Source: a virus
Reading direction: 5' to 3' (one strand)
DNA length: 64,000 nucleotides
Virus record (IMG/VR): IMGVR_UViG_3300027816_000056
Shown here: positions 3,911 to 33,496 of the stretch, one piece after another
Numbering within the stretch: position 1 is the stretch's first letter
Layout of the letters: every line of letters begins with the position of its first letter
Position numbers and translations under genes: made by a program
Notes under the pieces: model-generated
What the model was told of the DNA's origin: nothing
What the model saw: only the letters and a program-made list of their open reading frames with translations
Databases searched by the model: none

Positions 3911-3928
3911 ATATATTTACCTTTTTAT

Positions 3929-8750: not shown

Positions 8751-8758
8751 ATATTCTT

Positions 8759-8787
8759 ATTATGTATATTTTTTAAATAGATTCCAA
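8759..8787 (-). promoter_or_regulatory. Sigma70-like promoter TTGGAA-N17-CATAAT
   Basis: 17-nt spacer, -10 box 8 nt from the ATG at 8750. Confidence 0.45.
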
Positions 8788-12664: not shown

Positions 12665-13248
12665 TTAAAAATTTCCATTTGTGTTAAATCGGGCCAATCA
12701 GTTGAAACCCATTGTTTTGGTTTTGTTTGTATTGCTGTATCTAATTTGTCTAAACCCAATTGAGCGGTTTCTGGTGTCATATAGTAATGATATCCGTATG
12801 TTTGAACATTTTGTACTCGCCATGGAATATTCGGCAGTCTACCATCATATGACATTTTTTTTAACTGTATAGCTGCAGCTTTGTTATCAGTTAATATCAT
12901 TCCACCGCGTCCTAAACTTAAATGTTTTTGATATTGAAATGATAAACTCATATATGTCCGTGGGATGTAACTATCTGCAGACCACAAAACTGCTGCATCA
13001 ATAACAGAATCTGTTAAATAATAGTAATCAACCCAATCTTCTGTTCGCCATTCCAAATCAATTAATAATTTATTTGCTAAAAATGGAATTGATAAATATG
13101 TATTTTTTGGAACACTTATACTATCTGCATTTGTATATCGCAGACATAATTCAACACCGTGAGTACAAGAATCAACTGCAATCGCATATGGAGCTCCAAA
13201 AAACTTAGCAATGCTATTTTCAAAATCCGTTACGGTATTAAAATTCAT
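12661..13248 (-). CDS. Shortened DegT/DnrJ/EryC1/StrS PLP-dependent sugar aminotransferase
   Basis: FE..IAKFFGAPYAIAVDSCT, IDAA, SFQYQKHLSLGRGGMILT with the Schiff-base Lys; only 195 aa. Confidence 0.8.
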   Translation of the reverse strand: MNFNTVTDFENSIAKFFGAPYAIAVDSCTHGVELCLRYTNADSISVPKNTYLSIPFLANKLLIDLEWRTEDWVDYYYLTDSVIDAAVLWSADSYIPRTYMSLSFQYQKHLSLGRGGMILTDNKAAAIQLKKMSYDGRLPNIPWRVQNVQTYGYHYYMTPETAQLGLDKLDTAIQTKPKQWVSTDWPDLTQMEIFK

Positions 13249-13787
13249 TTTGTTGCCTCCACATTCAAACTAATTAATAATCCATTTTCTTTATCCATAT
13301 GTGGATAATATGCTTGAGAATGATCATCATATTGTGCATGATCTGTCTTTTTCCAATTATAATGAATTATATTGTAAAATCCTAATGATTCTAATAATTC
13401 CTTTAAAGAGTTAAAATCATATACTGTTTTATGGTAAATGGTTGCATTGCCCATGGGCATTTGACCGAATAATGGTCCTAATATTTTATTTATATCATTC
13501 GTATCTTGATATACCCACATTAATTTTAAGAAATCTGGAACTGCTAATCTTAATGTTCCGCTGGGACGTAAAACGCGATACCATTCTTGCAATACCGTTT
13601 TTATTTCTGTTCTATCAAAATATTCTATAACATGTGATGCGTAAATAACATCAACAATTCCATCATTAAATGGTAATTTTGTTATATCATTAAATTGTAA
13701 ATGTGAATAATCTCCGCCGTCAATATGAATCCAATCTGAACCGAAGTCGCGCCATCCGCAGCCTAAATGTAATTTAATCGTTTGCAT
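13245..13787 (-). CDS. SAM-dependent methyltransferase (Methyltransf_11-like)
   Basis: LHLGCG, LPF..VDVIYASHVIEY, EWYRVLRPSG. Confidence 0.88.
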   Translation of the reverse strand: MQTIKLHLGCGWRDFGSDWIHIDGGDYSHLQFNDITKLPFNDGIVDVIYASHVIEYFDRTEIKTVLQEWYRVLRPSGTLRLAVPDFLKLMWVYQDTNDINKILGPLFGQMPMGNATIYHKTVYDFNSLKELLESLGFYNIIHYNWKKTDHAQYDDHSQAYYPHMDKENGLLISLNVEATK

Positions 13788-14355
13788 ATAATGTAATTAA
13801 ATTTAATTTTATATTTTCTTTTTCCCAAGCAACATCGGCATAAGCAAATCCCAATGATTGTAATTTATTTATTAGATCATTATGTTGATCACTCGTTATA
13901 TTAGTTATTTTACCTAAATGAAATTCTACAAATAAATCATTAATATATTCTAAACAATTGTTAGATAACATATGGTTTAATAATTCATATTCAGCACCTT
14001 CTATATCAATTTTTAAAATAATATAATCATCCTTATCAAAATTATCTGTAATAAATTTACATACATCTAAACACTCCGTTTCGATAAATCGATCTTGTTT
14101 AATATTGGTAATTTTAGATGAATTGATGGTACTAGCAAATGATTCACTACCTAAATAAAATTTTACAACGCCATCGCGAATCCAAGCAGCTTTTTTATAA
14201 AAATTAACACCATTAAAATTTTTAAATGATTTAAAATTACTTGGATCTGGTTCAAATGCATGAATCTCATATTCAGCCGAATCTGGTATTAAATCATAAA
14301 AAAATTTAACTGATTGTCCTTTGTTAAATCCTAAATCTATAAAAATTTTTTTCAT
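13774..14355 (-). CDS. FkbM-family methyltransferase
   Basis: FIDLGFNKG, AFEPDP, LKIDIEGAE, VEFH. Confidence 0.88.
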   Translation of the reverse strand: MKKIFIDLGFNKGQSVKFFYDLIPDSAEYEIHAFEPDPSNFKSFKNFNGVNFYKKAAWIRDGVVKFYLGSESFASTINSSKITNIKQDRFIETECLDVCKFITDNFDKDDYIILKIDIEGAEYELLNHMLSNNCLEYINDLFVEFHLGKITNITSDQHNDLINKLQSLGFAYADVAWEKENIKLNLITLYAND

Positions 14356-14762
14356 ATAAATGTTTTATCTAATTGTTGACCTTCATATGGTCCTGTTTTA
14401 TATTCATATACTAATGTATTATCTTCTAAAATTTCATACGTATGACCACCTTGCAATGTAAATGAAGCATCACCTGTATATAATATTGGAGTTGCAATAA
14501 TTTGATCATCGATATCATAAAAAATGCATTTTACACTTCCATGAATTACAATCCAACTTTCCTGAGCAATTATATTACGATTACGTTCTTTCCATATATG
14601 TTTATGTGGAGCAAATGTTTTACCCTTTTCCATATTGAGCAAAGAACATTGTATAAATTGATTGTCTGGAACTACTTCAGTTCTACCCGGACTTAAATCT
14701 TCTTTTCGTACTATTATATGTAATAATATATCTGAATCAATATTACTATAAATTTTTTCCAT
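14352..14762 (-). CDS. Cupin protein (WbuC/sugar isomerase-like)
   Basis: PHKH..QESW, GGHTY, EYKTGPY. Confidence 0.75.
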   Translation of the reverse strand: MEKIYSNIDSDILLHIIVRKEDLSPGRTEVVPDNQFIQCSLLNMEKGKTFAPHKHIWKERNRNIIAQESWIVIHGSVKCIFYDIDDQIIATPILYTGDASFTLQGGHTYEILEDNTLVYEYKTGPYEGQQLDKTFI

Positions 14763-15409
14763 TATAACGTTTCGTAATATGAATTTTGTTTTTCTTGTCG
14801 TTCGATTGTCTTTGGATGATATAAAGAATAATCTTCTTCCATTGGTAGCTGTGCATATTGCTTGAATCCTGTTAATACTTCATGTACTCGATTCTTCCAG
14901 GTAACTGTACCATCGTTACGATATATTCTCCACTGATAATCCGGCCAATTCACCCATCCTTCGGAATTTACATTCCAATTCCATTTCATTGCGTGTTCCT
15001 CAGTTAATCCATCAACTGTATTAACGCGTGGCACTAAATACACATCAACATCTGGATTGCTTTGTAATATTGTTGGCAATGATTCTAATATCGGAGTGCA
15101 TGGAATTTCGTCAGCGTCAATTTGAAAAATATAATCACCGGTGCATTGTTGTGTTAAATGATTTTTAAATGCAGCAAAATCATTGTTTAGTGGATAAAAT
15201 ATAACTCGTACGTTGCCTTGCTCATTATGTTTCATAATATATCCAAAGACCTCACGTTTATCTTGTGTTTGCGTATTCAATTCATCTAGATTCAAATCCA
15301 TTTGAACTACAATCTCATCTTGCGGTCTTTTATGTTCTAAAAGAAATGTAATGAGTCTTTGTATTTCAACGAACTCATTGCATACCGTCAGTGCGTAACT
15401 TATTTTCAT
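14762..15409 (-). CDS. Glycosyltransferase family 2
   Basis: ISYALTVCNE, DYIFQIDADE, PDYQWRIY, VHE. Confidence 0.88.
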   Translation of the reverse strand: MKISYALTVCNEFVEIQRLITFLLEHKRPQDEIVVQMDLNLDELNTQTQDKREVFGYIMKHNEQGNVRVIFYPLNNDFAAFKNHLTQQCTGDYIFQIDADEIPCTPILESLPTILQSNPDVDVYLVPRVNTVDGLTEEHAMKWNWNVNSEGWVNWPDYQWRIYRNDGTVTWKNRVHEVLTGFKQYAQLPMEEDYSLYHPKTIERQEKQNSYYETL

Positions 15410-16689
15410 GCTTCAATCTTTTTTAATTTTGGCAATGTAATCTTTGGAGCTTCAGTTTCGACCCGTTTCAGTTTAGGAAGTTGAAGTTGAATTTGTTGTG
15501 GAACTGATTGCAATGATGAATCAACATGTTCTAATACTTGTTTATATGTTTCTGCAATTGCAGTTTTTGTAAATGTGCTATTAACAAAATATCGTTGACG
15601 TTTTGCTAAATCCATCCATTTTTTATAATTTTTGCGAACTTCTTGCATCATCTTTCCAGCATATTTATAATCTGGAGTAAACCATTTAGCTTCTTTAATT
15701 AAAAATGGATTCTGTGCAGATGCATGAATTGGAGTCAATCCTCCTGGCAATGCACAAATAAAATCTTTCTTTAAAAAGTCGGCTTGTCCAGAATAATGTG
15801 GAGCTATAATTGGTTTACCTGTAGTTGAGAATTCTAATAATGGTCTACCAAATCCTTCTGCTTTAGTAAATGATATCATGGCTTTAACTTTAGGATGATT
15901 GTACATGGCATTCATTTCAAAATCTGCTAATTCTCCATGCACAAGATACACATTGGGAAGTTTAGCCGATCCAAAGTTTTCTCGAATCTGCAAAATACGT
16001 GATTCAATTTCCATTCTATCCATGATGCTATACGTAGCACCACTTGTTTTTAATATGAGAGCTGGTTGATCTTTAGTGTTTTTAAATGTATCAAAGAAGC
16101 AGTGTACTAATCCAGAAAGATTCTTTCGGTCTTCACCTAATGATCCTTGCAACCAATGTCCTACCGATAAGAATGCCCAAGATTCTTTAATTTCATCTAG
16201 CAGCGGAAACGGAATATCTGCTTTGTTGTTATATACAACTTCATTGAAATATTCTGGTACAACTTCTATTCGTGTTGTTAGTGGTAAATTTTGTTGTTTT
16301 GCGGTATTTTCAAATACTTCTTTAGTAAAGTTACTAGGAACTATTACCAATTGCATTTTATTTAAATTTTCAATCCATTCTTTAGGACATACATCGCCTT
16401 CTGTTCCTGCAGTCACTCCTATATTATATTTGCCAACCGGTTGCAATTCATTAGGAACTGATATTTGCACCCAAACATCTGGTTGTTCTGTTAATGGTAA
16501 CGGAATAATTCTTCGCATCCATTCCGGAGATAACGGATATGTCATTGGAGTTCCGCCCCACGGCAATGAAACTAATTTAACATCCCATGAATCTCCTCGT
16601 TGTTCTATAATATTGCTAATTACTTCTCGTGCATGATGCCCGTAACCGCTTTGTGTTGCTACGGGACTTGCTATAACTATTTTTCTCAT
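15406..16689 (-). CDS. Glycosyltransferase family 4 (GT-B)
   Basis: SGYG, VPSNF, RKN, EGFGRPLLE..GKPII. Confidence 0.88.
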   Translation of the reverse strand: MRKIVIASPVATQSGYGHHAREVISNIIEQRGDSWDVKLVSLPWGGTPMTYPLSPEWMRRIIPLPLTEQPDVWVQISVPNELQPVGKYNIGVTAGTEGDVCPKEWIENLNKMQLVIVPSNFTKEVFENTAKQQNLPLTTRIEVVPEYFNEVVYNNKADIPFPLLDEIKESWAFLSVGHWLQGSLGEDRKNLSGLVHCFFDTFKNTKDQPALILKTSGATYSIMDRMEIESRILQIRENFGSAKLPNVYLVHGELADFEMNAMYNHPKVKAMISFTKAEGFGRPLLEFSTTGKPIIAPHYSGQADFLKKDFICALPGGLTPIHASAQNPFLIKEAKWFTPDYKYAGKMMQEVRKNYKKWMDLAKRQRYFVNSTFTKTAIAETYKQVLEHVDSSLQSVPQQIQLQLPKLKRVETEAPKITLPKLKKIEA

Positions 16690-18179
16690 TGTGCTACTAT
16701 TCCTGTTCGTTCATAAACTCGTTCTTCTACTCGATGCAATGTGTATGATGGTCTTGATTCTTTTTTAATTGAAAATAAATAGTTAAACATTTCAATCATT
16801 TTGTTACCCATCGATTCTGCAGTCAATCCGTATTGCATGCACCATACTCTTCCGCAAATTCCAGATGACTCTCTCACTTCAGGATCCATATCATACCAAT
16901 AACGAATTGCATCGGCTACATCTTCAAAACTTACTCGATCATCAAAGATATATGGTGTTGCTGGTGATCCTTGTAATGATCTATTGGTTGGAAATACTGG
17001 TTTTGCCCAACTTCCATGTTTCTTAAACTTACCGGTATGATTTGTTGCAAATTCACCATTGAAACGAATCCATTCTCCATTTTCATCTTGAAAACCACAT
17101 TGATCTTGCAATCCACCAGTTACATTGTTAATTATTGGAGTACCTGATAGCATCGCTTCGGTTGAACTTAATCCCCATCCTTCGTTGCTACCAATATTAA
17201 CTACAACATCAGCTACATTGTACATTGCATTAAGATCTTGTGAAGATAATTTTTGTTCTGAAAACAATATTTTACAATTTGGTGCTAATGCCTTTGCTAC
17301 TGCACGAAGATCCGTTCCATTTTCATCAATTGCTTGAGTATGCATTAATAATGCAACACGACTCTGTTGTTCTGCTGGTAACTGATCTACAAAATGTTTG
17401 AATGCAATAACTAAATCACCTGGTTGCTTCCTTCTAATATTTCGATTGTTCCAAAATACTACAAAATCTACGCCGTTACGTGTTTTAATGCGTTCATACA
17501 TTTGCTTGTATGTTTCATCGGTTTTTGGTAACGGCTTAAACATGTTGTGATTCAATCCGTGCGGCACAAATCCGGTAACTACTTGATTCCATTTAAGATC
17601 TGCAGGAGCTGAATCTCCATCATCATAATCTACAACCCCAAATCCGTTCTGTTTAAGCACTTCTCTGTGAATATTATCAGATTGCTTACTAATGCCCATA
17701 ATCATATCACAACTGCCGTAAAAAGGGGCGTTCCACATTGGATACGGCAAATCATCCCAAATAGAATAATACGTAATTGGAACACCAAACGTTGTTTTAA
17801 TTTCATGTTCTAGTTGATACAACCAAGTCCAGTAACGAGGATCTGTAAAGTGAAGAATTGCATCGGGACGTTCTTGATTCAAAATTGCAAACAAGATGTT
17901 TCTGTCTCCATATCCATTCCATGGAATCAATTTAACTGACGCATCTTGTATGCCAGTTTCTCGAGCAATTTCTTGAGACAAATCAAATGCTTTGCCGGCA
18001 TCTGGATGATTGATTGCTGCACCTAATTGCACCCAATCAAATTCCTTAACGGTGTTTAAAATAATTTCTTTGCTAACTGTTCCAATTCCAGATGGAAGAC
18101 GGAAATCATCTGCTAATAATAGAATTTTCTTTTTTGCAGGACGGTTAGGATCAATTTTTCTTAATTTTGGTAACTCCAT
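16686..18179 (-). CDS. Glycosyltransferase family 4 (GT-B)
   Basis: SGIG, VPHG, NRNIRRKQ, EGWGLSSTEAMLSGTPII. Confidence 0.9.
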   Translation of the reverse strand: MELPKLRKIDPNRPAKKKILLLADDFRLPSGIGTVSKEIILNTVKEFDWVQLGAAINHPDAGKAFDLSQEIARETGIQDASVKLIPWNGYGDRNILFAILNQERPDAILHFTDPRYWTWLYQLEHEIKTTFGVPITYYSIWDDLPYPMWNAPFYGSCDMIMGISKQSDNIHREVLKQNGFGVVDYDDGDSAPADLKWNQVVTGFVPHGLNHNMFKPLPKTDETYKQMYERIKTRNGVDFVVFWNNRNIRRKQPGDLVIAFKHFVDQLPAEQQSRVALLMHTQAIDENGTDLRAVAKALAPNCKILFSEQKLSSQDLNAMYNVADVVVNIGSNEGWGLSSTEAMLSGTPIINNVTGGLQDQCGFQDENGEWIRFNGEFATNHTGKFKKHGSWAKPVFPTNRSLQGSPATPYIFDDRVSFEDVADAIRYWYDMDPEVRESSGICGRVWCMQYGLTAESMGNKMIEMFNYLFSIKKESRPSYTLHRVEERVYERTGIVAQ

Positions 18180-20702: not shown

Positions 20703-20923
20703 TATTTTTTCAATTTAATTGGTTGAAACTCTTCCGGAATAGCACCACAATCATCGCATCTAAATACCGGTACTGGTACCATTGTATCTTTGTCTCCGCC
20801 TGTTAGAAACTTTGACACTTTGTTAATTGCCATTACCTGACGAAAATACAATCCGTCACATTCTTTGCATTGTATCGGTTGCATATCATTAGGACCGATA
20901 TTTACATTTAATTTATTACTCAT
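20702..20923 (-). CDS. Zinc-ribbon protein
   Basis: CKEC..CDDC. Confidence 0.7.
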   Translation of the reverse strand: MSNKLNVNIGPNDMQPIQCKECDGLYFRQVMAINKVSKFLTGGDKDTMVPVPVFRCDDCGAIPEEFQPIKLKK

Positions 20924-21846
20924 ATTTCTCCTAAAATATTTACAAACATTGCCATTGCATTGATTTCTTTGTCTACTACACTAGCATCTTTAAATTGCGA
21001 CTCTGCAATAATCAATATTACCGGTGCAATATGGCCGTGAGCAAATTCATCTAAGTTATCATATAGAAATGTATACAATGGCGTAAAATCTCGCACTTTG
21101 CTATCCGCAATAATTTGACGAATTTTAGTAAATGCTGCCTTTTTATCTTTGCTATTACGCAGAACATCCAAAATTTCCGTCATGTAATTGGCTTGTATGC
21201 TACTTGTTTTGTCTAATTGCAATACTCCGTTAACTACGGATGCTTGTGCTGCATTAATTGCACGACGAATATCTGGATAAGATGCATTAATGATTGCTGC
21301 TACGTCTTTGATGTCATATCGTATTTCATTTTCTTCAAGTACTTGCACTAATCGCTTTGCTACATCCGTTTTATTGGGTGGAGTTATTGCAAATGTCTGA
21401 CAACGAGATTGAATTGGGTCAATAATCTTTTCAACATAATTACATGTTAAAATGAATCGTGTTGTTTTGCTATAAGTCTCCATTAAATTGCGAAGTGCGG
21501 CTTGAGCATTAGGTGTCAAGTAATCTGCTTCATCTAAAATAATGATTTTCCAACGACGAAATCCAACTGTAGATGCATATCTTTTAATTTTATCTCTAAC
21601 AGCATCCACCGAGTTTTCATCCGATGCATTTATATACATAACATCGGCGTCCACACTAGAGGCAATGATTTTTGCCAACGTGGTCTTCCCAGTTCCAGCT
21701 GTGCCATAAAATAACAAGTGAGGAACGTCGCCATTAGCAATAAATATGCCAACTTTTTCAATGATATGTTCATTTCCTATATATCCTTCTAATGTATCTG
21801 GGCGAAACGATTCTACCCAGAGTGTATTTTCTGTGTTTCCGTACAT
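20920..21846 (-). CDS. Clamp-loader AAA+ subunit (T4 gp44/RFC small subunit-like)
   Basis: LWVESFRP, GTAGTGKTT, INASDE, DEAD, SRC. Confidence 0.95.
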   Translation of the reverse strand: MYGNTENTLWVESFRPDTLEGYIGNEHIIEKVGIFIANGDVPHLLFYGTAGTGKTTLAKIIASSVDADVMYINASDENSVDAVRDKIKRYASTVGFRRWKIIILDEADYLTPNAQAALRNLMETYSKTTRFILTCNYVEKIIDPIQSRCQTFAITPPNKTDVAKRLVQVLEENEIRYDIKDVAAIINASYPDIRRAINAAQASVVNGVLQLDKTSSIQANYMTEILDVLRNSKDKKAAFTKIRQIIADSKVRDFTPLYTFLYDNLDEFAHGHIAPVILIIAESQFKDASVVDKEINAMAMFVNILGEI

Positions 21847-21848
21847 AC

Positions 21849-22274
21849 TTAAATACCTGTTGATCCAAATCCTTTGTCACCTCGTTTAGTTCCGGATAAT
21901 GCTCCGGTAGGCAACCATTCTATATGTTCTACTTTGCAAAGAACCATTTGAGCTATTCGATCTCCTTTTTCAAATTCAACAGCTCTAGGACCATGATTAA
22001 TTAAAATAACTCCTATTTCTCCTCTATAATCACAATCAATAGTGCCTGGAGAATTCAATACAGTGATTCCATGTTTCAATGCCAATCCGCTTCTTGGTCT
22101 AATTTGTATTTCATATCCTTGCGGAATTTCTACATATAATCCGGTGTTAACTAGAATTCTAGTACCCGAATCCAAAAATATGTCCTCGTTGCAACAAATA
22201 TCTAAACCTGCGGATCCCGGAGTCTTATACTGCGGGATCGGATTATTGGATGTGTTTTTTACTGGTACTATCAT
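21849..22274 (-). CDS. dut: Trimeric dUTPase
   Basis: AGLD, RPRSGLA, GTIDCDYRGE, RIAQ, RG..GFGSTG; start moved to MIVPV. Confidence 0.96.
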   Translation of the reverse strand: MIVPVKNTSNNPIPQYKTPGSAGLDICCNEDIFLDSGTRILVNTGLYVEIPQGYEIQIRPRSGLALKHGITVLNSPGTIDCDYRGEIGVILINHGPRAVEFEKGDRIAQMVLCKVEHIEWLPTGALSGTKRGDKGFGSTGI

Positions 22275-22279
22275 AACAA

Positions 22280-22990
22280 TTAATTCTGTAACATTACTAA
22301 CCAATATGTTGAATCAAAATCATTTCCAACAAAATCTATACGAGCTAATCCATCTGGTGATACATGCAACTGACCAGCATCTCCTCGATTTGCTACAAGT
22401 ACTTCTTTCAATTTATCTGCAGAGAAACAAACTGGATCCATATCTGCACCTGGAGTATTGCCTACTTCAAATGTGATGTTGTCTGCATTTACGGTACTAT
22501 AATTAATAATAAAACGAATTACACCACCTTTAACTTGAACTGCAAAGTTTTTAGCATCAGGCAAAGCATTTTTTGCTTTGATAAATTTAGTAATAAACTC
22601 ATCATTAACTGGAATTTGAATTTGATAATCAGGCTCTGCATTGATTGCAGGTACTGCTGGAATGACAGTGGTATCAGCTAACATAAAGGTTGCTTCAGTT
22701 TTTCCTTCGCTGATTTTCATTGCATAGTTTTTACCTGCAGAATCTTTAACATCAATTTCAATATTTTCACCTAGTGCTGATAACATTTTAATTAAGGCGC
22801 CTGTATGATTGATTCCTAATTCGCCTTTCATGAAAGGAGTCGTTTTCCATTGAATTTTACCTACAACGGTTTGATCAATATCAATTAATTCACATCCGAT
22901 TCCTTCGGCATTTTCTTTTAGTTTAACTGCCTCGCAATTACCAGCAAGATAATAACGATTAATTAATGATTGTAATTTGCTTTTTTCCAT
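22280..22990 (-). CDS. Sliding clamp (T4 gp45-like)
   Basis: 236-aa two-lobed alpha/beta pattern, next to the clamp loader. Confidence 0.75.
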   Translation of the reverse strand: MEKSKLQSLINRYYLAGNCEAVKLKENAEGIGCELIDIDQTVVGKIQWKTTPFMKGELGINHTGALIKMLSALGENIEIDVKDSAGKNYAMKISEGKTEATFMLADTTVIPAVPAINAEPDYQIQIPVNDEFITKFIKAKNALPDAKNFAVQVKGGVIRFIINYSTVNADNITFEVGNTPGADMDPVCFSADKLKEVLVANRGDAGQLHVSPDGLARIDFVGNDFDSTYWLVMLQN

Positions 22991-23001
22991 TTTTATCCTG
23001 A

Positions 23002-24264
23002 TTAAAATTTAAAGAATTTATTAAAGTTTTCTGCATCGGTAGTTGAAATTGAATCACCTCCGAATTTTTTATATGTTTTAATATACTTTTCGTATACTTG
23101 TGGTGCTGCATCTGGATCTGCAAACATTTCATGCAATGATAAAATCACATCATATAAATCTTTAGGAACTACTGTTTCTAACAATTCAACGTGACTATCA
23201 ACTAATTGATTTATTTCTTTTGCAGCATTCACATACAAATGGGTATTATGAACAACCATTCTAGGCATAGCTTCTTGTGAATATCTATCTAATCCAGCAT
23301 CCGTCTTACCGCCGAGATATTCATATGTAAAATCAGCACAAGCTGGACATCCTAATTGACAAGGTACATGTTGTGTCAAATCAATTCCAGTTACATCACC
23401 CGTTTTGCCTTGTTTGATATGTGACTTACGTCGATACTCAGCATTCTTTGGAAAATACAATTCAGAGAATGTTTGTGTCTTGAAATTTGTTGAATGAAGA
23501 TACGTTCCAAATACTGGATATTGTCCTGGTGATGATGAATCCGTTGTTACTGTAATTCTTCCTCCGTAATGTTTATTCATTAATTTTTGCATTGTTGCTA
23601 AAATAAAGAAATCGGAAATTTTACTAATTCCTAACAAGTGAAGATATTCATTACGAGTTTTTTCAAATTCTCCTTCTTTAAGCATTAATGATAATGCAAA
23701 CATGAAATCAACTAATTTTTGTGGACCACCAATCGCCCATCCTTGAAAATCAAAATGCTTGAATTTATGATACCACCATGTATATTCCTCAGCATTCGAT
23801 CCTTGCAACATATTCAAAAACTTAGTCTTACCGCTTTGATGTTTTTCAAACCAAGCAAAGTTATCATAACTAATATCTGCACATGTTGCAAATTGATTTC
23901 TATATTTAGTTTTAGGTGGTATATCTAAATTTGCTGCAACATCGCTGTTTGCTTCTAACCAATGAAAAATCTTTTCACGAAGTTCATTACTATACGGCAA
24001 AGCACCAGTTGCAATCTGATATCCTCCAGAATCTCCAAATACTAATACATCTTTTTCTAATCCTAGTTGATCTCGAAAATCCATTTTTTTGTAATGATGT
24101 CCTGCCGTAATCAAAAAGTATGGATGTCTCCAATCTTCTGGATAACGAGAGTCAAAAAACTTTACAGGGTCACCATTTGAAAATTTCATATCTTTCTTAA
24201 ATGCAGAAACCATAGATCCTGCAGATAATGATGGAAAGTATATGAATCTTTTAGCTTCGCTCAT
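23002..24264 (-). CDS. dpdA: Guanine transglycosylase, DpdA/TGT family (probable DNA 7-deazaguanine insertase)
   Basis: DSGGYQ, LDIPP, LQG, WAIGG, HLLG, DSSS, C-x3-C-x2-C..HN zinc site; folE/queD/queE nearby. Confidence 0.8.
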   Translation of the reverse strand: MSEAKRFIYFPSLSAGSMVSAFKKDMKFSNGDPVKFFDSRYPEDWRHPYFLITAGHHYKKMDFRDQLGLEKDVLVFGDSGGYQIATGALPYSNELREKIFHWLEANSDVAANLDIPPKTKYRNQFATCADISYDNFAWFEKHQSGKTKFLNMLQGSNAEEYTWWYHKFKHFDFQGWAIGGPQKLVDFMFALSLMLKEGEFEKTRNEYLHLLGISKISDFFILATMQKLMNKHYGGRITVTTDSSSPGQYPVFGTYLHSTNFKTQTFSELYFPKNAEYRRKSHIKQGKTGDVTGIDLTQHVPCQLGCPACADFTYEYLGGKTDAGLDRYSQEAMPRMVVHNTHLYVNAAKEINQLVDSHVELLETVVPKDLYDVILSLHEMFADPDAAPQVYEKYIKTYKKFGGDSISTTDAENFNKFFKF

Positions 24265-25291
24265 TGTATTCCTTTAGTTTATTAATTAATTTTGTTGCTG
24301 AAAAAAAGTTTTTATGTAATGCTGTAACCAGTTGATTAATATTAGTTGTTATATCAGCATTTTCATATTCTAATATTGCTTGAACCACATCATCTATACT
24401 ATTCGCACGTTTAAACATCGGCGAATACATTTCAGTGTATGATAATCTATCTGGCACAATCGGACATGCTCCTGCACAAGCTGATTCATACATTGATATA
24501 CCTAATGTTTCTTGATCTGCAAATGATACTGCAAACTTAGCTCGTCGAAGCAATTCATGATATTCTGGTTTAGTTAAATTCATTTCCATTGCTACACAGA
24601 ATTGATAATGTGCTAATTCTGGACGAGCTGCTAATTCTTGAAATAAGTCTAATCGTTTCTCAGGAGCTATACGGTGCGGAAACACTATGATGTTTTCTTT
24701 TTCTGCCCAAGCTTTTGGTTGAATTATATTTTTGGTATATTCCATTGGCCAGCCCGTACGATGAAATGTTAAATTGAATGATATATCATATGTTTTACTC
24801 ATTAAATCAAAGTGAGCTTGTGTTGCTAACCAATTGAAATCAAATGCAGATATAAATGATTGTTCTGCGTGTCGTATCCACGATTTTCCTCCTACGAGAC
24901 GACCTAAAAAATCATTTGGATCATATGACCCCGCGTGCCATAGTCCGTGCGTTACAACGGGAATATTTAGGAGTTCGCTCATGTATTTTACATTGATAAT
25001 ACCCGGATGCCATGCATCTGTAAAAATAATATGATCTCCTGGCTGAATATGTCCTCGGGTAAACATGTAACTTAAAGAATGAACTTGCTTTGCTTTATAC
25101 ATGTTAGTACCACCAAAATTTAAGAATGCACCTGGAGTGGTTGCTTCTGGAATATTCAAATCTCCCTCTACAACAATTACTTCAAATCCAGCTTCTTCTA
25201 ATAATTTTGGTACATGAGTCTTCCATTCGCAGGTATAACGAGTTGGTACTGATTCTATGTCAACTAAAAATATTCTCATCTTATCTTTCAA
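24251..25291 (-). CDS. GT-B (GT4-like) glycosyltransferase in the deazaguanine operon
   Basis: HAGSYD, VFPHRIAPEKR, QETLGISMYE..GACPIVPDRLSY.E. Confidence 0.8.
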   Translation of the reverse strand: MKDKMRIFLVDIESVPTRYTCEWKTHVPKLLEEAGFEVIVVEGDLNIPEATTPGAFLNFGGTNMYKAKQVHSLSYMFTRGHIQPGDHIIFTDAWHPGIINVKYMSELLNIPVVTHGLWHAGSYDPNDFLGRLVGGKSWIRHAEQSFISAFDFNWLATQAHFDLMSKTYDISFNLTFHRTGWPMEYTKNIIQPKAWAEKENIIVFPHRIAPEKRLDLFQELAARPELAHYQFCVAMEMNLTKPEYHELLRRAKFAVSFADQETLGISMYESACAGACPIVPDRLSYTEMYSPMFKRANSIDDVVQAILEYENADITTNINQLVTALHKNFFSATKLINKLKEYNERS

Positions 25292-25637
25292 TTATCGCTC
25301 CATTTTCCCAATCTTCCCAAACTTCTACTTTGTATAATTCTGGAAATTGATCTAATAAAAATTCTCCAATAGCTTCGCATGACATTGCACCAAATTCTAG
25401 TACATTATATGCATCTTTTTCGAAATACATATGAAGATTTCGTTTTATCTCTCGATTTAATAAAATAAATTCTTTGTCTCGATCCGTATGCGTTACATGT
25501 GCATAACATCGAAATCCAAACATGTGTCGATGTCTATCCGATAAGAATGCTACTTCCGGGAACACATCTTTAGCAGCGGGCCAACAATGAAACCCTTCAA
25601 TACTAAATGTTACTACTACGCTGTACTTCATCTGCAA
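25281..25637 (-). CDS. dpdL: QueD-like T-fold protein, probable CDG decarboxylase (DpdL-like)
   Basis: EGFHCW, LSDRHRHMF (LxxxHRHxF, which I recall as the DpdL signature), SCE, VWEDWENG; a canonical queD exists separately. Confidence 0.7.
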   Translation of the reverse strand: MQMKYSVVVTFSIEGFHCWPAAKDVFPEVAFLSDRHRHMFGFRCYAHVTHTDRDKEFILLNREIKRNLHMYFEKDAYNVLEFGAMSCEAIGEFLLDQFPELYKVEVWEDWENGAIIER

Positions 25638-26019
25638 TTAATTGTTTATATTTAGTTGTAGACCAACCATGTGATCTATCAATGTAATGAATAAGAGTAC
25701 CTAAATCTTTACCGGTAAAATCTTTTCCAATGTAATCATCTCCTAGGAAACGAATATCCGGATCAATACCTTTAATAAATTCATAAAGTATTTTTTCCGT
25801 AGAATACGTTATAACTTCATCAATCATTTCTAATGAAAGCAACATTTCTTTACGTTCGGCTACTGATAAGATAGGTTTCATTTTTTCTGGACGTTCGATA
25901 CTAGGATCTTCATGTAACAATACAATCAACCTAGTACAATGTTTTTTACATTCATTAAACATCTTAATATAACCTGGATGTATTACATCAAAGTTACCAG
26001 CAATTACTCCTATTTTCAT
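25603..26019 (-). CDS. Cytidylyltransferase (TagD glycerol-3-phosphate CTase-like)
   Basis: AGNFDVIHPGY (HxGH variant), KPI..ER, GDDY, RSHGWSTT. Confidence 0.85.
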   Translation of the reverse strand: MKIGVIAGNFDVIHPGYIKMFNECKKHCTRLIVLLHEDPSIERPEKMKPILSVAERKEMLLSLEMIDEVITYSTEKILYEFIKGIDPDIRFLGDDYIGKDFTGKDLGTLIHYIDRSHGWSTTKYKQLIADEVQRSSNI

Positions 26020-26441
26020 TGTCTATCGAATTTATAATCATCTGGAGTTACTTGTTGCATATTATGCACTGTGGTACAATACAATGAATAATCTGCATAC
26101 ACAACTTTAATACTATCTGTTTTCTTTAGCAATCCAGCATCTTTACAATCCAACATTAATAAGATGTGAGCTCGAATTCTAATCATTGGTGGTATCTTTT
26201 CTAACATACCAGGAGTAACTTCTAATGTTACAAAACTAGTATCAGAAATCATTCTGAATACCATATCCCATCGCTCTTGTTCAATTAACTGCTGTGTAGC
26301 TCCGGAACAAAAATAAACATGTGCTATTTTATTTGCTACAATTTTATCTAATGCCTTTACATCAGCAATAAATAAAGTTTCAATATCGGTAAAGCGACCT
26401 TCTACTTCTTTACCATACCAATGAGTTCTATAACCAATCAT
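26016..26441 (-). CDS. Hypothetical protein, first gene of the deazaguanine/clamp operon
   Basis: 141 aa; WYGKEVEG..TLFI, HVYF; ATGA overlap with the CTase gene. Confidence 0.75.
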   Translation of the reverse strand: MIGYRTHWYGKEVEGRFTDIETLFIADVKALDKIVANKIAHVYFCSGATQQLIEQERWDMVFRMISDTSFVTLEVTPGMLEKIPPMIRIRAHILLMLDCKDAGLLKKTDSIKVVYADYSLYCTTVHNMQQVTPDDYKFDRQ

Positions 26442-26446
26442 ACCAT

Positions 26447-26475
26447 ATTATAATAAAATAATTGCTATTTTCCAA
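26447..26475 (-). promoter_or_regulatory. Sigma70-like promoter TTGGAA-N17-TATAAT (leaderless)
   Basis: Perfect -10 box 5 nt from the ATG at 26441; -35 box lies in the last codons of polB. Confidence 0.7.
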
Positions 26476-28972
26476 ATGAAAAGAATCGATTTGCATTATT
26501 ATTCTCCGGTAATGCGCCCCATCCCATTGCAGAATAAAAATCATCAAACTTATTGCTTAACTCACTTGAAAACATTTTGTTATGATCAATATACTGTTCT
26601 GCAAAGGCTACAATCTCTGGTGGGTCTTGATAACCTCGTAATGCTATAGTTTCAAAGCCATATGGATTGTTAAGCAAGTAACCCCATTTAATTTTTTCTC
26701 CATCTGATATAGGTAACACATCTGTATTTAATTGTGTTAACATATCATTGAAATTGATTGCAGCTTTAACGTGTGCAGTGGATCCTTTGATATATCCAGA
26801 AAATGGTTTTCGGCCTTTGATATATTTTGACAATTCTTTAACACTTGAATTCTTCATAATATTCAATACTTCTGATTTTTTAATATTACTTTTGAAATCA
26901 TGTATCAATGTAGAAGTTGTTTGCTTGTCTTTGCCTTTAAGAATAAACCACAATGTTTCTTTCATGATCTTTTTAAAGTCAGCCGGAAAACTTGATCTTA
27001 CAACATCTAATCCTTTTATATCCAATTTATCTGTAGGTTTTCCTTCTTTGAAAATAACCCATTGTGCATATCGTTTCTTTGCAATCCATAAACCAGATTT
27101 TGCAATGTATTCCTGCTTAATTTGGAATCTATGTTTTTCGGTATTATGAAATACTTTTGCATATTGATTATACATTGTATTAACAGTGCCTTGAATCTCA
27201 GATGCAATTGCATTTGTTTGTTCAATCATGAATTGTTCATCTTCAACATCGCATCCTGGAAATCTATGTTTGATTAAAGGTTCGCTGCTACAAAAGGTTG
27301 AATCTGTATCCGTGTAAAATGCAAACTCTGCTTTATCTCCAGATGCATTAACAAAATGATCCGTGCCTAATTCTCGTTGATATTGATTATTAATAACACG
27401 ACCAGAAAATTTAATTATGCTTTGCCCTACTGCTGTAATAGCACCTGCATTATCTAGATCATGAAAACGAAATGTTTTTAATCCTAATACTCCATAAAAT
27501 GAATTGAGCAATACTTTTTGCGTTAACTGCAATGCATCATAGAATTTATACTCCTCAGTACCTACTGCAAATGTATCTCGTTTGTCTTTGAATATTACAC
27601 GTTCATCAAACCATTTTTCAAGAATCGTTGGAAGAAATCCGCGTTGATCATTTCTATAGACTGTACCGTTACTTGCAATACTGTAATTATTTTCAACTAA
27701 CCAAGATCTAATATCTGGAATTGTTTTTCCATTCATCGTGACCTGAGTTGCTTCGTCTCGCATCATACATTCCTGATTCCAATTTGATACAACTCCAATT
27801 TTTGTTTCTGGAGATATATTCAATGTCATGATGATACTAGGATACAATGATGTTAAGTCCAAGTCATAGATCCATTTATATAATCCAGGTACCGGTGCTT
27901 TTACATATGCTCCTGCTAATGCATCAGCTATTGTTTCTTCTTCAATGAATCGGAACTGTTTGTTAGGCGCAACTAATCCGTTTCGCTTTAAATCTACAAT
28001 TGCAGCACCATCTAGATATTTAGATGCATAATATACATCTTCATATGGAACGTGACCTTTGTGACAAATTGAACGTGCTAAATTCAACATTTGCAACTTG
28101 TCGTCTAATTCATAAACCAGATCAACGTCAGTCATATTGTAATAAGCAAACTTGTGAATATCTTGTGTAAATAGTGTATCTAAATCACCTTCGTATTCAA
28201 CTTTGCCTCGACCTAATTCAAATTGTGCTACTGTATCTAATCGATAATTAGGAAGTTCTGTATATGTAAAGTTTTTATATAATTTTAAATAATCTAAACT
28301 AGATACACCTAAAATTTTCCACTTACCGGATTTGCTTTGTTCAACTACTCCTGCGGGAGATAATTTTTTAATGGATTGTGCACCTAATACTTTTTTGCAA
28401 CGACCTATCAAATACGGAATATCATATCCATCAGTATTCCAGCCTGTAATTACTGTAGGTTGTATTTCTGCGAATATATTAATAAATCTAGTTAATAAGT
28501 CTCTTTCATCTCGAAATATCTCTAAAGTATAGCCGTCACCTTGTATTTCACGGTCTTTTATGCGGCCTAATTCATCTAAAATTAATACTCGACGATCTTT
28601 GCCGACTTTATCATAGTATGCAATTGAAGTAATTGATGTACGTACATCATCAATTGTACTATAACCATTTTCATCTTTTGCTGTTTCAATGTCAAAAAAG
28701 AAATCTCTATGTCCTTTTGAAGGCTCATCTGATTCATAATACAAATCAATTAGAGTTCTAACTTCTTCATTTAAATCAGATTCATATGATTTAGGATTAT
28801 CTCTGTGATTACCAGCAACACGATCTAATCTAGTGCCGTCTAATGATTGATATTGTCCTTGTGTATTTGGTAAATATCCATATGGTTGAAATGGAAACTT
28901 TTGATGTCCTAATTCATCATCCCAAACGTGCATAATGCCGTTTTTCTTGTCGTAACCTATTGCTTGATACAT
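26465..28972 (-). CDS. polB: Family B DNA polymerase (T4 gp43-like)
   Basis: FFDIET (ExoI), GWNTDGYDIPY, DLTSLYPSII, KVLLNSFYG, YTDTDS, KKRY, KGLDVVRS. Confidence 0.97.
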   Translation of the reverse strand: MYQAIGYDKKNGIMHVWDDELGHQKFPFQPYGYLPNTQGQYQSLDGTRLDRVAGNHRDNPKSYESDLNEEVRTLIDLYYESDEPSKGHRDFFFDIETAKDENGYSTIDDVRTSITSIAYYDKVGKDRRVLILDELGRIKDREIQGDGYTLEIFRDERDLLTRFINIFAEIQPTVITGWNTDGYDIPYLIGRCKKVLGAQSIKKLSPAGVVEQSKSGKWKILGVSSLDYLKLYKNFTYTELPNYRLDTVAQFELGRGKVEYEGDLDTLFTQDIHKFAYYNMTDVDLVYELDDKLQMLNLARSICHKGHVPYEDVYYASKYLDGAAIVDLKRNGLVAPNKQFRFIEEETIADALAGAYVKAPVPGLYKWIYDLDLTSLYPSIIMTLNISPETKIGVVSNWNQECMMRDEATQVTMNGKTIPDIRSWLVENNYSIASNGTVYRNDQRGFLPTILEKWFDERVIFKDKRDTFAVGTEEYKFYDALQLTQKVLLNSFYGVLGLKTFRFHDLDNAGAITAVGQSIIKFSGRVINNQYQRELGTDHFVNASGDKAEFAFYTDTDSTFCSSEPLIKHRFPGCDVEDEQFMIEQTNAIASEIQGTVNTMYNQYAKVFHNTEKHRFQIKQEYIAKSGLWIAKKRYAQWVIFKEGKPTDKLDIKGLDVVRSSFPADFKKIMKETLWFILKGKDKQTTSTLIHDFKSNIKKSEVLNIMKNSSVKELSKYIKGRKPFSGYIKGSTAHVKAAINFNDMLTQLNTDVLPISDGEKIKWGYLLNNPYGFETIALRGYQDPPEIVAFAEQYIDHNKMFSSELSNKFDDFYSAMGWGALPENNNANRFFSFGK

Positions 28973-30449: not shown

Positions 30450-31139
30450 TTATTTATTATATTTTCTACTATTATTTATTCGTTTTGTCCAAGCTAAATT
30501 TGATGGATCGCAACATTCTCTAACTGTCATTCCTTCTTCAAAACATTTACTACGTGGTTTGATATGATCTAAACTAGGATAATTTTTATCACTAAAATGT
30601 AATGTTAAATTATCTTTTATATATTCGCCATCAATGTAATCATACCCATCCCATGTTTCTAACATCACTTTACGCATTTTTCTAGTATGATAATTGCAAA
30701 CCTTCCAATACTTTTTCCATTCAATGTTTCGTTCATCTACCCACCGTTGAATTAAACCTTTTTCTTTTTTTGTTTGTATCCCTTTTGCAATTGATTCTGG
30801 TGTATTTGAATATATATGCATATTAATCGCTTTTTTATCTAAACCAAATTCTGCAGGATGCAATTTCATATACTGTGAATAACATATATGACTACAAAAT
30901 TTTGACGTATTTGAATTATATACAGTTATCATATTGTTACAAAATTTACATTCCAAAGTTTTATATGATGTTTGTTTAAAATACATTTTTCTGCATTTCG
31001 CACTACACCAATTATTTTTAGCTGTTAATGTTTTTTTATTTCCGGAAATTGTTTCGTAATATGAATTACATACATCACATGTTCTGCCATGTATAAATTT
31101 ATATTTAGTTCCTATTTTTTCTGTACGTACATATGTCAT
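30450..31139 (-). mobile_element. Free-standing HNH homing endonuclease with N-terminal Zn-finger repeats
   Basis: CxxC..CSxxC twice; SLDHIKP..NL....N..K HNH core; own promoter motif. Confidence 0.75.
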
Positions 31140-31197: not shown

Positions 31198-31986
31198 TTA
31201 CACCCCGCGCTGCGTATTGAAAGCTATTATGTGATCTCTTCCTGTCATGTTATATCCTCGTTCGGCACACATTTCAAATACTATCGGATACATTTTGATT
31301 AATTCTTCTCGAGTATCGCCGGCGGGCATAATATACGTCTTTTCTTTAGGAATTTCTAAAAATTCGCGTGCTTCTTCAATTTCTTTAAGATTCTCTTCAG
31401 TGCCATCCCATACTGGTTTAAAATGATAATCAGAATGAGTGGTTATCATTGCATTCATTGCTGAATAATTCAGCCTAAACTTGTTATGTTGCGCAACCAT
31501 CTTTTCATCCGTAATCGTGCCTTGCGGCGTAGCAACACCCACCCTGGGAACGCTATTGCTAAACTTAGGGCTAAGAGAGATAAGCCCAATAGGATAATCA
31601 GTCTCAATAAAATGCGAGCCTTCAGTTTCAATAGTAATGAGAATATCTCTTTCATGTGCAAAATGTGTTAGTTCGTTAACTAATGCAGGATGCATTGTGG
31701 GAGATCCACCCGTTAACATCATTTCTTTGATATGTGGATTTTTATCATAAATATCAATGATATCATTAAATGTAAATGTGCCTTTTTCTGGGTGAATGCT
31801 AGTGTACCAAGAGTCACACCAACCTCCTTCGCCAAACCAACAACGATGAGTGCAGCCTGTAGTTCTAACTGCAATTGTAGGTCTGCCAAATCGAGATCCT
31901 TCTGATTGTACACAACGATATAATTCTACTATTGGAAGTATTTTCGTGTAATCTGTAATTCTTTTAGAATGGGAGGTCATCGTCAT
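31198..31986 (-). CDS. queE: 7-carboxy-7-deazaguanine synthase (radical SAM)
   Basis: ELY..VQSEG..G.P...VRTTGC, atypically spaced Cys motif CTHRC..WCDS, LTGG.P, TIETEG, SLSPK. Confidence 0.92.
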   Translation of the reverse strand: MTMTSHSKRITDYTKILPIVELYRCVQSEGSRFGRPTIAVRTTGCTHRCWFGEGGWCDSWYTSIHPEKGTFTFNDIIDIYDKNPHIKEMMLTGGSPTMHPALVNELTHFAHERDILITIETEGSHFIETDYPIGLISLSPKFSNSVPRVGVATPQGTITDEKMVAQHNKFRLNYSAMNAMITTHSDYHFKPVWDGTEENLKEIEEAREFLEIPKEKTYIMPAGDTREELIKMYPIVFEMCAERGYNMTGRDHIIAFNTQRGV

Positions 31987-32329
31987 CTTCTATTTTATTT
32001 GTTGATATATTCAAGTTGTTAATTACGTTTTGAAATAAAGACTCAAGCAATTGCAATCGTTCCTGCAATTTAATTAATTCAGAACGCCTTACAATTGGAG
32101 TTAAATCCATTTCCGACATATTAGCAAAATAATCATCTAAAAATGATATAGGATACAATTGCACTTGAGTATATTCCGGTTTCTGAGCTTCTTTCGGTAA
32201 CATTCTCCATTTAATCTCAACGCCTCGTTTAATAGCTTCTGCTGTTACTTCTCGACCAATATTGGTACCTCCAGATCCTTTACCTAAATATTCAAAAAGC
32301 GATAGATATGTCTCATTATTATTCTTCAT
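31964..32329 (-). CDS. Hypothetical protein with C-terminal coiled coil and acidic DDDDLPF tail
   Basis: Between queD and queE; likely start MKNNNET. Confidence 0.65.
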   Translation of the reverse strand: MKNNNETYLSLFEYLGKGSGGTNIGREVTAEAIKRGVEIKWRMLPKEAQKPEYTQVQLYPISFLDDYFANMSEMDLTPIVRRSELIKLQERLQLLESLFQNVINNLNISTNKIEDDDDLPF

Positions 32330-32795
32330 ATATACTTGAATTATTATCGTTTTCAAAACATTCTACTTTGATACATCGACATCTGCCAGCATCTGTATTT
32401 GCTAAAACTTCATTGAATTTATCATATACTAGTTTAGCACACGATTCAGCACCCATCTTTTCTAGAAAATGTACTTTTGCTAATCCAGATACTTGAAGCA
32501 TTTCAAACATATCTCTATAAGGATCATCTGCTTGAATAAGTGTAGTATGATCCCACATATGATCCATCCAATCTTTAAGACCATTGCCTTTTGGTGGTGT
32601 CTTGAAACCTCCATAATCAACAATCCAATTCATATCATCAAGTTGATTCTCAATATCTGGTTCGTTAGATGCAAACCATACTTTAAATTTAAGTGCATAT
32701 CCATGTAGCAGTTGACAATGAGAATGTTGAGCTTTCCATTGACGTATTGCTACTGAATAGTTTTCAAATAGTTTTGTTGAAATGTAACGTGCCAT
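32319..32795 (-). CDS. queD: 6-carboxy-5,6,7,8-tetrahydropterin synthase
   Basis: HCQLLHGY, WIVDYG, WDHT, GAE, VECFE. Confidence 0.9.
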   Translation of the reverse strand: MARYISTKLFENYSVAIRQWKAQHSHCQLLHGYALKFKVWFASNEPDIENQLDDMNWIVDYGGFKTPPKGNGLKDWMDHMWDHTTLIQADDPYRDMFEMLQVSGLAKVHFLEKMGAESCAKLVYDKFNEVLANTDAGRCRCIKVECFENDNNSSIYEE

Positions 32796-33496
32796 TAATT
32801 ATAACCTTTTACAAATTGATAAAATTCTGATCTTGCATTACCATCTTCTAAGAATGCTCCGGATAGCTTTGCTGTCTTCATTGAAGCTCCGCCATGCTTA
32901 ACACCTCTGCATTGCACACAATTATGCGTTGCTTCAATCATGATTGCAACACCTTTATTGTTTTCAATTAATTCATCTATTGCGTGATGTATTGCTACTG
33001 TCAATTGTTCTTGAATTGCACCTCGTCTGCCAAAGTGTTCTACTACACGATTCAATTTACTCAAACCAATAACATTGCTATTCTCACCTGGAATATATGC
33101 AACATGTACATTACCCATAATTGTCTGATGATGATGACTACACATTGAAGTTAATGGAATACCTCCTTCAAATACAATACCATCATATCCGTCACTAGGA
33201 AATGCTGTAATGTCTGACATTGGATTATATCGGCCGGCCCATAAATCATTTACATATGCCTTTGCTACTCTACGTGGAGTATCAGCTGAATTTGGATCCG
33301 TTTCCCATGTTACTCCTAATGCTGTTAAAAATTGTCCGTAATGATATGCAGCTTTATCAATAATTTCTTGTTTTTCTTCTGCAGTTAGTCTAGCATCAGG
33401 ACCTTCTAATGTTTGCTTAACTGCTAATTGCATAGAAACACCGTTAGCAAAACCAGGATGCACTAACTCTAAATTTGTTCTTTGTTTTGTTGTCAT
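32795..33496 (-). CDS. folE: GTP cyclohydrolase I
   Basis: DTPRRVAK, SMCSHH, IGLSKLNR, IQEQLT, HNCVQCRGV. Confidence 0.96.
   Translation of the reverse strand: MTTKQRTNLELVHPGFANGVSMQLAVKQTLEGPDARLTAEEKQEIIDKAAYHYGQFLTALGVTWETDPNSADTPRRVAKAYVNDLWAGRYNPMSDITAFPSDGYDGIVFEGGIPLTSMCSHHHQTIMGNVHVAYIPGENSNVIGLSKLNRVVEHFGRRGAIQEQLTVAIHHAIDELIENNKGVAIMIEATHNCVQCRGVKHGGASMKTAKLSGAFLEDGNARSEFYQFVKGYN

Follow-up and report, generated by a model that had tools for sequence, protein, structure and literature searches.

The 64,000-nucleotide (nt) stretch of viral DNA in IMG/VR record IMGVR_UViG_3300027816_000056 (hereafter the window, the part of this phage's genome to which our searches for QueC and for tRNA-guanine transglycosylases (TGTs) apply) contains five tightly packed genes between a family B DNA polymerase (polB) and a sliding clamp, among them a DpdL, a glycosyltransferase (GT), and a large DpdA-like enzyme with a TGT fold. 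We think that these genes form an undescribed type of 7-deazaguanine DNA-modification module which includes a sugar step and is built into the phage replication genes, and we would put the probability of this reading at about 0.55. The module and its immediate neighbors, with protein lengths in amino acid residues (aa), are as follows:

26465-28972, minus strand: polB (PF00136 and PF03104), directly upstream of the module
26447-26475, minus strand: sigma-70-like hexamer pair TTGGAA-17-TATAAT, a match at chance frequency
26016-26441, minus strand: 141-aa protein with no family match
25603-26019, minus strand: 138-aa nucleotidyltransferase (NTase; PF01467)
25281-25637, minus strand: 118-aa DpdL (T-fold, LSDRHRHMF)
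24251-25291, minus strand: 346-aa GT (PF00534, GT-B/GT4 fold)
23002-24264, minus strand: 420-aa DpdA-like enzyme (TGT fold)
22280-22990, minus strand: sliding clamp (phrog_223, processivity factor, at 1.9e-7), directly downstream of the module
21849-22304, minus strand: dUTPase
20920-21846, minus strand: clamp loader

The coordinates bear out the layout proposed in an earlier, sequence-only reading of this DNA: the five open reading frames (ORFs) abut or overlap (by 4, 35, 11, and 14 nt in gene order), the first follows polB after a gap of 23 nt, and the series runs straight into clamp, dUTPase, and clamp loader, as family matches also indicate, with every gene from polB through the clamp loader on the minus strand. 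The single promoter which that reading placed at the head of the five genes (26447-26475) did not survive scrutiny; sigma-70-like matches number 46 where 48.5 are expected in shuffled sequence, so that the match carries no weight, and Bacteroidota, to which the host probably belongs, use promoters other than the sigma-70-like type.

Gene linkage strongly supports assignment of the GT to the deazaguanine pathway. Searches of cultured phages with the GT (tblastn) found homologs of about 40% identity in PA5oct-like Pseudomonas jumbo phages, Acidovorax phage ACP17, and Sinorhizobium phage Phosso, and of about 25% identity in Xanthomonas BUDD/X1 and Burkholderia BCSR5; a hidden Markov model (HMM) of the GT added a distant member in a cyanophage, Synechococcus phage BUCT-ZZ01. 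In every one of these phages the GT sits in a deazaguanine cluster, in the following gene orders:

PAC2 (PA5oct-like): DpdA-like, GT, DpdL, then QueE
ACP17: QueD, FolE, unknown, DpdA-like, GT, DpdL, QueE
BUDD: GT, TGT, DpdL, QueE
Phosso: polB, clamp, glycosylase, DpdL, GT, FolE
BCSR5: DpdL, then GT, DpdA-like, QueE
BUCT-ZZ01: DpdA-like, DpdL, GT

The same association recurs among uncultured phages, and the co-occurrence counts, those for cultured phages included, come from samples retrieved partly by means of the GT itself: i) among 80 IMG/VR loci found with the GT, the DpdL-GT-DpdA arrangement is kept in all close relatives with spanning contigs; ii) in a further group of loci, the 49-53% clade, DpdL lies directly upstream of the GT, FolE and QueD follow, and the DpdA-like gene lies 3-5 kb before; and iii) two GT peptide motifs, searched against 185,579 prokaryotic species genomes, retrieved just 9 loci, all on contigs of metagenome-assembled genomes (MAGs) carrying phage genes, with DpdL directly upstream of the GT in 8 and the ninth cut by the contig end. 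Several lineages place the module between polB and the clamp. Counted from DpdL, 6 of 13 DpdL-bearing cultured-phage groups have both the GT and this type of DpdA, and the remaining 7 (the phiST group, MA9V-3, D479, Bakedbeans, Roos, RHph_I1_18, and Ahp1) have neither nearby, with no GT within 5 kb; among the lineages found, the GT was never seen without DpdL. All told, at least ten phage lineages besides that of the window keep the GT beside deazaguanine genes, and since this adjacency has survived shuffling of gene order in unrelated backbones, it is strong evidence of one shared function. The sequence-only reading had wired both the GT and a cytidylyltransferase into the deazaguanine pathway and had suggested following the GT, dpdL, and the unknown gene together with dpdA across phages; the GT does travel with these genes, having DpdL or the DpdA-like gene as a neighbor wherever it was found, whereas about one close relative in four lacks the supposed cytidylyltransferase (our NTase), which is not part of the core.

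The GT itself is a GT-B enzyme as the earlier reading had it, an assignment that the fold confirms at the family level. It scores 27.4 bits against PF00534 (cut-off 26.4), and its structure model (pLDDT 84) aligns with GT4 enzymes in VIA-align at Z 21-26 over about 290-320 residues, the top matches being sucrose-phosphate synthase, BshA, and MshA (Z 23.5-26 over 294-320 residues, with only 10-13% identity). The EX7E motif is intact (E261-x7-E269), and R-x3-EK corresponds to R207, E211, and K212. Residues E13, R18-Y19-T20, D92, D127, E143, R207, E211-K212, and E269 are invariant across 13 lineages, over which the N-terminal, acceptor-side half is the most conserved part of the protein; its conserved signature (RYT, D92, HAGSY, D127, and E143) is found only in phage deazaguanine clusters. 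The T4 alpha- and beta-glucosyltransferases are not among the best 50 Foldseek or VIA-align matches, an absence that is compatible with a relationship. No longer proteins fusing the GT to another domain were found, which is weak evidence, and a predicted complex of GT, DpdA-like enzyme, and 141-aa protein scored 0.00, which is evidence neither way.

The TGT-fold transglycosylase of the earlier reading is likewise confirmed at the family level by its predicted fold. By itself the 420-aa protein has no sequence match in Pfam, PHROGs, or the PDB; the family is recognized only through profiles and fold. The model (pLDDT 91.6) retrieves exclusively tRNA-guanine or archaeosine transglycosylases among its best 50 Foldseek PDB matches (E about 3e-9), the family profile matches the archaeosine transglycosylase (arcTGT) 1iq8 at E 2.4e-4, and 23 of 53 diverse members of the family, which comprises 793 clusters at 50% identity, reach the Pfam TGT model PF01702. 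GDSGGYQ at residues 77-83 aligns with DSGSFQ of arcTGT; D78-S79-G80-G81, D114, D242, H209, and N340 are invariant in the 53 members, H339 is present in at least 90% of them, and D242 would by its position be the nucleophile. A Cys3-His zinc site (C302-x3-C306-x2-C309...H339) is spaced CxxxCxxC rather than the usual CxCxxC, and the profile aligns this stretch with the zinc motif of 1iq8.

Profile comparison (hhalign) joins the family to a 424-aa protein of ACP17 at 97% probability, presumably the dpdA expressed by Cui et al., but yields a probability of just 1.6% when the 53-member profile is set against phiST DpdA3 (CGPG_00065, 259 aa); with no detectable similarity to phiST DpdA3, the window enzyme falls in a separate large subfamily, a distinction that goes beyond the earlier reading. 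The C-terminus (NFNKFFKF) resembles that of polB (NRFFSFGK) in the window clade, the corresponding tails in ACP17 are TLDELFE and SLDDLFE, the BUCT-ZZ01 enzyme ends in SLDSFFD, and an FF or LF motif closes most of the 53 diverse members on a tail modeled as disordered. This polymerase-like tail suggests that the enzyme docks on the sliding clamp, whose gene comes next downstream, an order that all close relatives keep. Taken together with the location beside the clamp and the G-modified DNA of PA5oct, the tail makes a role on tRNA unlikely, and we predict that the enzyme swaps guanine in DNA. A distant relative (22% identity) in Pseudomonas putida jumbo phages (vB_PpuM-Illi-2, locus L088:4857-6227) has no DpdL, GT, or deazaguanine gene near it, and the family may have another use there.

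The short T-fold protein is DpdL-like as first proposed: its LSDRHRHMF motif is of the LxxxHRHxF rather than the CxxxHGH type and aligns with DpdLs and phage QueDs, and the protein is 41% identical (E 7e-17) to phiST DpdL (locus CGPG_00067) and matches phrog_17812. Within the window it co-occurs with FolE, QueD, QueE, and DpdA, with no QueC seen. The DpdL tree is short and poorly resolved and cannot date gains and losses of the GT; GT-less DpdLs form long branches among GT-linked ones. In Chryseobacterium phage MA9V-3 (L100:4452-5333) and Vibrio phage Bakedbeans (L101:4230-5381), DpdL is the C-terminal part of longer annotated proteins whose N-terminal parts are unrelated to each other and also to DpdA3, so that we rejected the idea of DpdA3-DpdL fusions.

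The supply genes lie 5-9 kb from the module, whereas in other lineages they adjoin the DpdA-like gene, and were also recovered by tblastn with the ACP17 genes:

32795-33496, minus strand: FolE (PF01227 at 2.5e-44)
32319-32795, minus strand: QueD (PF01242 at 2e-11)
31964-32356, minus strand: conserved 130-aa ORF between QueD and QueE, with no family match
31198-31986, minus strand: QueE (phrog_2076, QueE-like, at 3.1e-50)

As no QueC was seen among the window ORFs scanned, the supply route ends at 7-carboxy-7-deazaguanine (CDG). Phage QueDs, both in the window and at two other loci (L083:3481-3975 and L002:2807-3283), read CxxxHGY where the quoted QueD signature is CxxxHGH. The 130-aa ORF (35-78% identity) is kept in most close relatives and may itself contribute to the pathway.

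The 141-aa protein probably belongs to the conserved module as its fourth component, a place the sequence-only reading had not given it. Searches of Pfam, PHROGs, NCBIfam, the ESM Atlas, and PDB sequence profiles gave no match for it or for its 172-aa relatives. Nearly every close relative encodes it, and its co-occurrence with the other genes extends more widely through a family of 132-183-aa proteins, a link that hhalign puts at 85% probability (E 5.8e-6). In ACP17 (ASD50402), in the 49-53% clade, and on several MAG contigs, proteins of this second family are neighbors of DpdL, the GT, or the DpdA-like gene. The wider family to which the window protein appears to belong (with members at L002:4332-4730, L069:5916-6434, L095:5766-6281, and L103:8632-9099) shares GxEVE, TLF, H-[IV]-Y, and a central Trp; reciprocal HMM searches of the two families match each other, and one of them also matches an ORF just upstream of the BCSR5 GT.

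The NTase, by contrast with this core, is a variable accessory. It belongs to the superfamily claimed for it (PF01467 at 5.8e-14), but the TagD label holds no further than that: its best matches are to HldE/RfaE domain II (phrog_7878, HldE-like, at 1.5e-35), and all curated cut-offs are missed (52 bits against TIGR01518 for TagD, cut-off 165; 68 bits against TIGR02199 for RfaE domain II, cut-off 181). It resembles HldE domain II more than a TagD-type glycerol-3-phosphate cytidylyltransferase. HxGH reads HPGY in all 25 distinct window-clade relatives, and WSTT occupies the ISTT position; a distant homolog (L095:1360-1806) has the canonical HAGH. Other enzymes of sugar metabolism take up positions beside the module elsewhere: some close relatives carry GFO/IDH/MocA and ADH-like oxidoreductases, as does the 49-53% clade, which also has a sugar C-methyltransferase, a cupin, an SDR, a UDP-glucose dehydrogenase, and an epimerase; PA5oct has an SDR. 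Such tailoring genes (L069:4127-5925 and 12297-16188; L028:19-1824; L097:4144-5923) differ even between close relatives, and this variation of donor enzymes by lineage suggests a fixed acceptor with a lineage-variable sugar. A phosphoribosyltransferase gene, absent beside the module in the window, recurs there in PA5oct-like phages, the 49-53% clade, several MAG contigs, and BUCT-ZZ01 (L001:8342-8776, L069:16213-16782, L095:9091-9648, and L087:1-402); its product may salvage the guanine freed by base exchange.

From the folds, catalytic motifs, and conserved gene linkage observed here, we propose a route whose acceptor atom, sugar, order of steps, and final product are conjectural: i) FolE, QueD, and QueE would make CDG; ii) DpdL would process CDG, with predicted removal of the carboxyl group to give 7-deazaguanine; iii) the GT4-type retaining GT would transfer a sugar from a nucleoside diphosphate sugar to the deazaguanine base, most likely while the base is free, or alternatively after its insertion into DNA; iv) the large TGT-fold enzyme, tethered to the clamp through its polymerase-like C-terminal tail, would swap guanine in phage DNA for the modified base; v) the 141-aa protein would serve as a conserved helper; and vi) the NTase would, where present, supply or edit the sugar donor, its place being taken elsewhere by other sugar-nucleotide enzymes. 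We favor addition to the free base because small molecules are the acceptors of the GT's nearest structural relatives and the protein itself is mildly acidic. The product, as the earlier reading proposed, may be a sugar- or polyol-phosphate-bearing deazaguanine; candidate acceptor atoms would be the 2-amino group, O6, C7, and the CDG carboxylate, of which the major-groove sites (C7 or the CDG carboxylate) should be easier to tolerate in DNA.

We are more tentative, and would stop somewhat short of even odds, about the broader proposal that many lineages (PA5oct, ACP17, a cyanophage, and an abundant freshwater T4-like group) replace guanine with a sugar-bearing 7-deazaguanine by means of DpdA, DpdL, the GT4 enzyme, and the 141-183-aa protein, the sugar having diversified by exchange of donor enzymes. 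Two published observations speak for the module as proposed. ACP17 dpdL and dpdA together gave no 7-deazaguanine in DNA (dDG) in E. coli, and the authors proposed that other enzymes are needed (PMC10516641); and PA5oct DNA resists restriction enzymes with G-containing sites, the base behind this resistance not having been identified (PMC12191111).

Several considerations weigh against a sugar step. Plain 7-deazaguanine has no hydroxyl group, which makes the acceptor atom ambiguous; a sugar on the 2-amino group would sit in the minor groove, an awkward place when the DNA is replicated; phiST arrives at plain dDG with a DpdL but without a GT, so that DpdL chemistry as such can do without the GT (PMC10516641); the CDG decarboxylase role of DpdL is predicted and has never been demonstrated for any member (PMC10516641); product chemistry has been measured in no GT-carrying phage; and the mild acidity of the GT (pI about 6) counts against action on DNA, though not on a free base. 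The phiST precedent and the want of an obvious acceptor group would also be explained if plain 7-deazaguanine or CDG ended up in DNA and the GT acted indirectly, either by glycosylating a protein such as the transglycosylase or a replisome component, or by making a transient sugar-bound intermediate whose sugar would be lost ahead of insertion or in the course of it; that the GT and the large DpdA are strictly paired also fits such a protein-directed or carrier role. We consider this unlikely but deserving of real weight: the acceptor-side half of the GT is its most conserved part, as expected for one fixed small acceptor, lineage-variable tailoring of the donor makes little sense for a sugar that is discarded, and protein-glycosylating GT4 enzymes are not the nearest structural relatives. 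It is quite improbable that the GT modifies some other target (another DNA base or a host molecule) and is merely co-regulated with the deazaguanine genes, as might be argued from the tendency of early replication operons to collect unrelated auxiliary genes and from the several other GTs in the window's 18-kb sugar island; the GT keeps its place beside DpdL or the DpdA-like gene in all lineages in which it was found, and no hydroxymethyl-pyrimidine route was noticed near it in any of them, although no search was aimed at one in the window.

We give little credence to the notion that the product of FolE, the QueD-like T-fold protein, and the GT is a glycosylated pterin or deazapurine which stays soluble and never enters DNA. 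Cyanobacterial biopterin glucoside and huimycin would be the models: tetrahydrobiopterin glucosyltransferases (BGluT; 9v0l and 5zes) match the GT at Z 21.6-22.2, and huimycin shows that a GT can act on a free deazapurine. BGluT nevertheless ranks below BshA, MshA, and sucrose-phosphate synthase, which makes its match generic for GT4; the set always includes QueE and a TGT-fold enzyme with a polymerase-like tail; and the DNA of PA5oct is modified at G. Most improbable of all is action of the TGT-fold enzyme on host or phage tRNA, despite a fold and motifs common to tRNA-guanine transglycosylases, since no QueC or QueF route to preQ1 was seen in the window, the C-terminal tail matches the polymerase tail in two lineages, polB and the clamp flank the gene, the DNA of related cultured phages is modified at G, and phage enzymes of the DpdA kind with known products all act on DNA (PMC10516641).

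A DNA-modification module with a sugar step combines features of several known systems. The closest is that of Cellulophaga phage phiST, in which FolE, QueD, QueE, DpdL, and DpdA3 lead to dDG (Cui et al. 2023, PMC10516641). Window and phiST share i) supply genes without QueC, ii) a DpdL of one family (41% identity, LxxxHRHxF), iii) a base-exchange enzyme of the TGT superfamily, and iv) location by polymerase genes; but phiST has the small 259-aa DpdA3 and neither a GT nor a member of the 141-aa family nearby, whereas the 420-aa TGT-fold enzyme of the window module has an extra helical domain and a polymerase-like tail and is always paired with a GT4 enzyme. In the biosynthesis of huimycin and the dapiramicins, a GT encoded beside FolE/QueD/QueE homologs glycosylates a free 7-deazapurine at its 2-amino group (PMC7439116). 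The hui cluster of Kutzneria albida thus resembles the module in these homologs and in having a GT, HuiG, that acts on a 7-deazapurine base; it differs in belonging to bacterial secondary metabolism, in having QueC and an O-methyltransferase, in lacking a base-exchange enzyme, and in its soluble product. The T4 alpha- and beta-glucosyltransferases, which act on 5-hydroxymethylcytosine, are also phage GT-B enzymes that put a sugar on a modified DNA base as a counter-defence, with a lineage-variable sugar; unlike in the proposed system, their acceptor is the hydroxymethyl group of a pyrimidine in DNA; they are members of other GT families, and no hydroxymethylase route is linked to the window GT. 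BshA, MshA, and sucrose-phosphate synthase, which use small acceptors, share with the GT the GT4 fold, EX7E, and the Arg/Lys phosphate-binding motif, but at the low identity given above, and the phage GT has its own N-terminal acceptor signature.

The wider surroundings of the module include an 18-kb sugar island (378-18179) with sugar-nucleotide enzymes, GT2 and GT4 glycosyltransferases, methyltransferases, epimerases/dehydratases, an ATP-grasp enzyme, an aminotransferase fragment, and a PIG-L deacetylase. The sequence-only reading was right about the island, and placed it about 6 kb from the operon where the distance is about 4-5 kb; it may supply unusual sugars, and a link to the deazaguanine GT is conjecture. 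Between QueE and polB lies a 229-aa HNH-endonuclease-like ORF (30450-31139) with a counterpart in none of 80 related loci, which probably arrived recently as a mobile element. In some close relatives (L017:7397-7981, L024:4318-4902, and L080:6983-7648) the module is split at the DpdL/GT or NTase/DpdL junction by homing-endonuclease-like ORFs of 194 or 221 aa; the insertions of about 1 kb between DpdL and the GT are ORFs of this kind and not pathway genes. Megablast found no near DNA relative of the window among cultured phages, and assembled contigs place its DNA in freshwater metagenomes from 14 studies. The host is probably a member of the Bacteroidota; 3 of the 9 MAG contigs retrieved by GT motifs were binned with Crocinitomicaceae, which hints at a host there.

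Cui et al. described DpdL and used ACP17 without mention of the neighboring GT (PMC10516641), and a 2026 preprint on deazapurine gene clusters deals with bacterial metabolite clusters only. Our search of the literature on DpdA, deazaguanine, glycosyltransferases, and phages found no paper linking a GT to the deazaguanine DNA pathway. To our knowledge, all known sugar-bearing DNA bases are pyrimidines (glucosyl- and arabinosyl-5-hydroxymethylcytosine, base J, and the sugar-like thymidine derivatives of Pbunaviruses), and all known DNA deazaguanines carry small groups. A sugar-bearing deazaguanine, if true, would therefore be the first glycosylated purine analogue in any DNA and a new class of DNA base. 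As the module is present in several cultured phages, mass spectrometry could settle the product quickly, and its enzymes could become tools for labeling DNA at G. A sugar step could explain the failure of ACP17 dpdL and dpdA in E. coli and could identify the G modification of PA5oct-type therapeutic phages, and the turnover among donor-tailoring genes suggests that these phages are in an arms race against modification-dependent nucleases.

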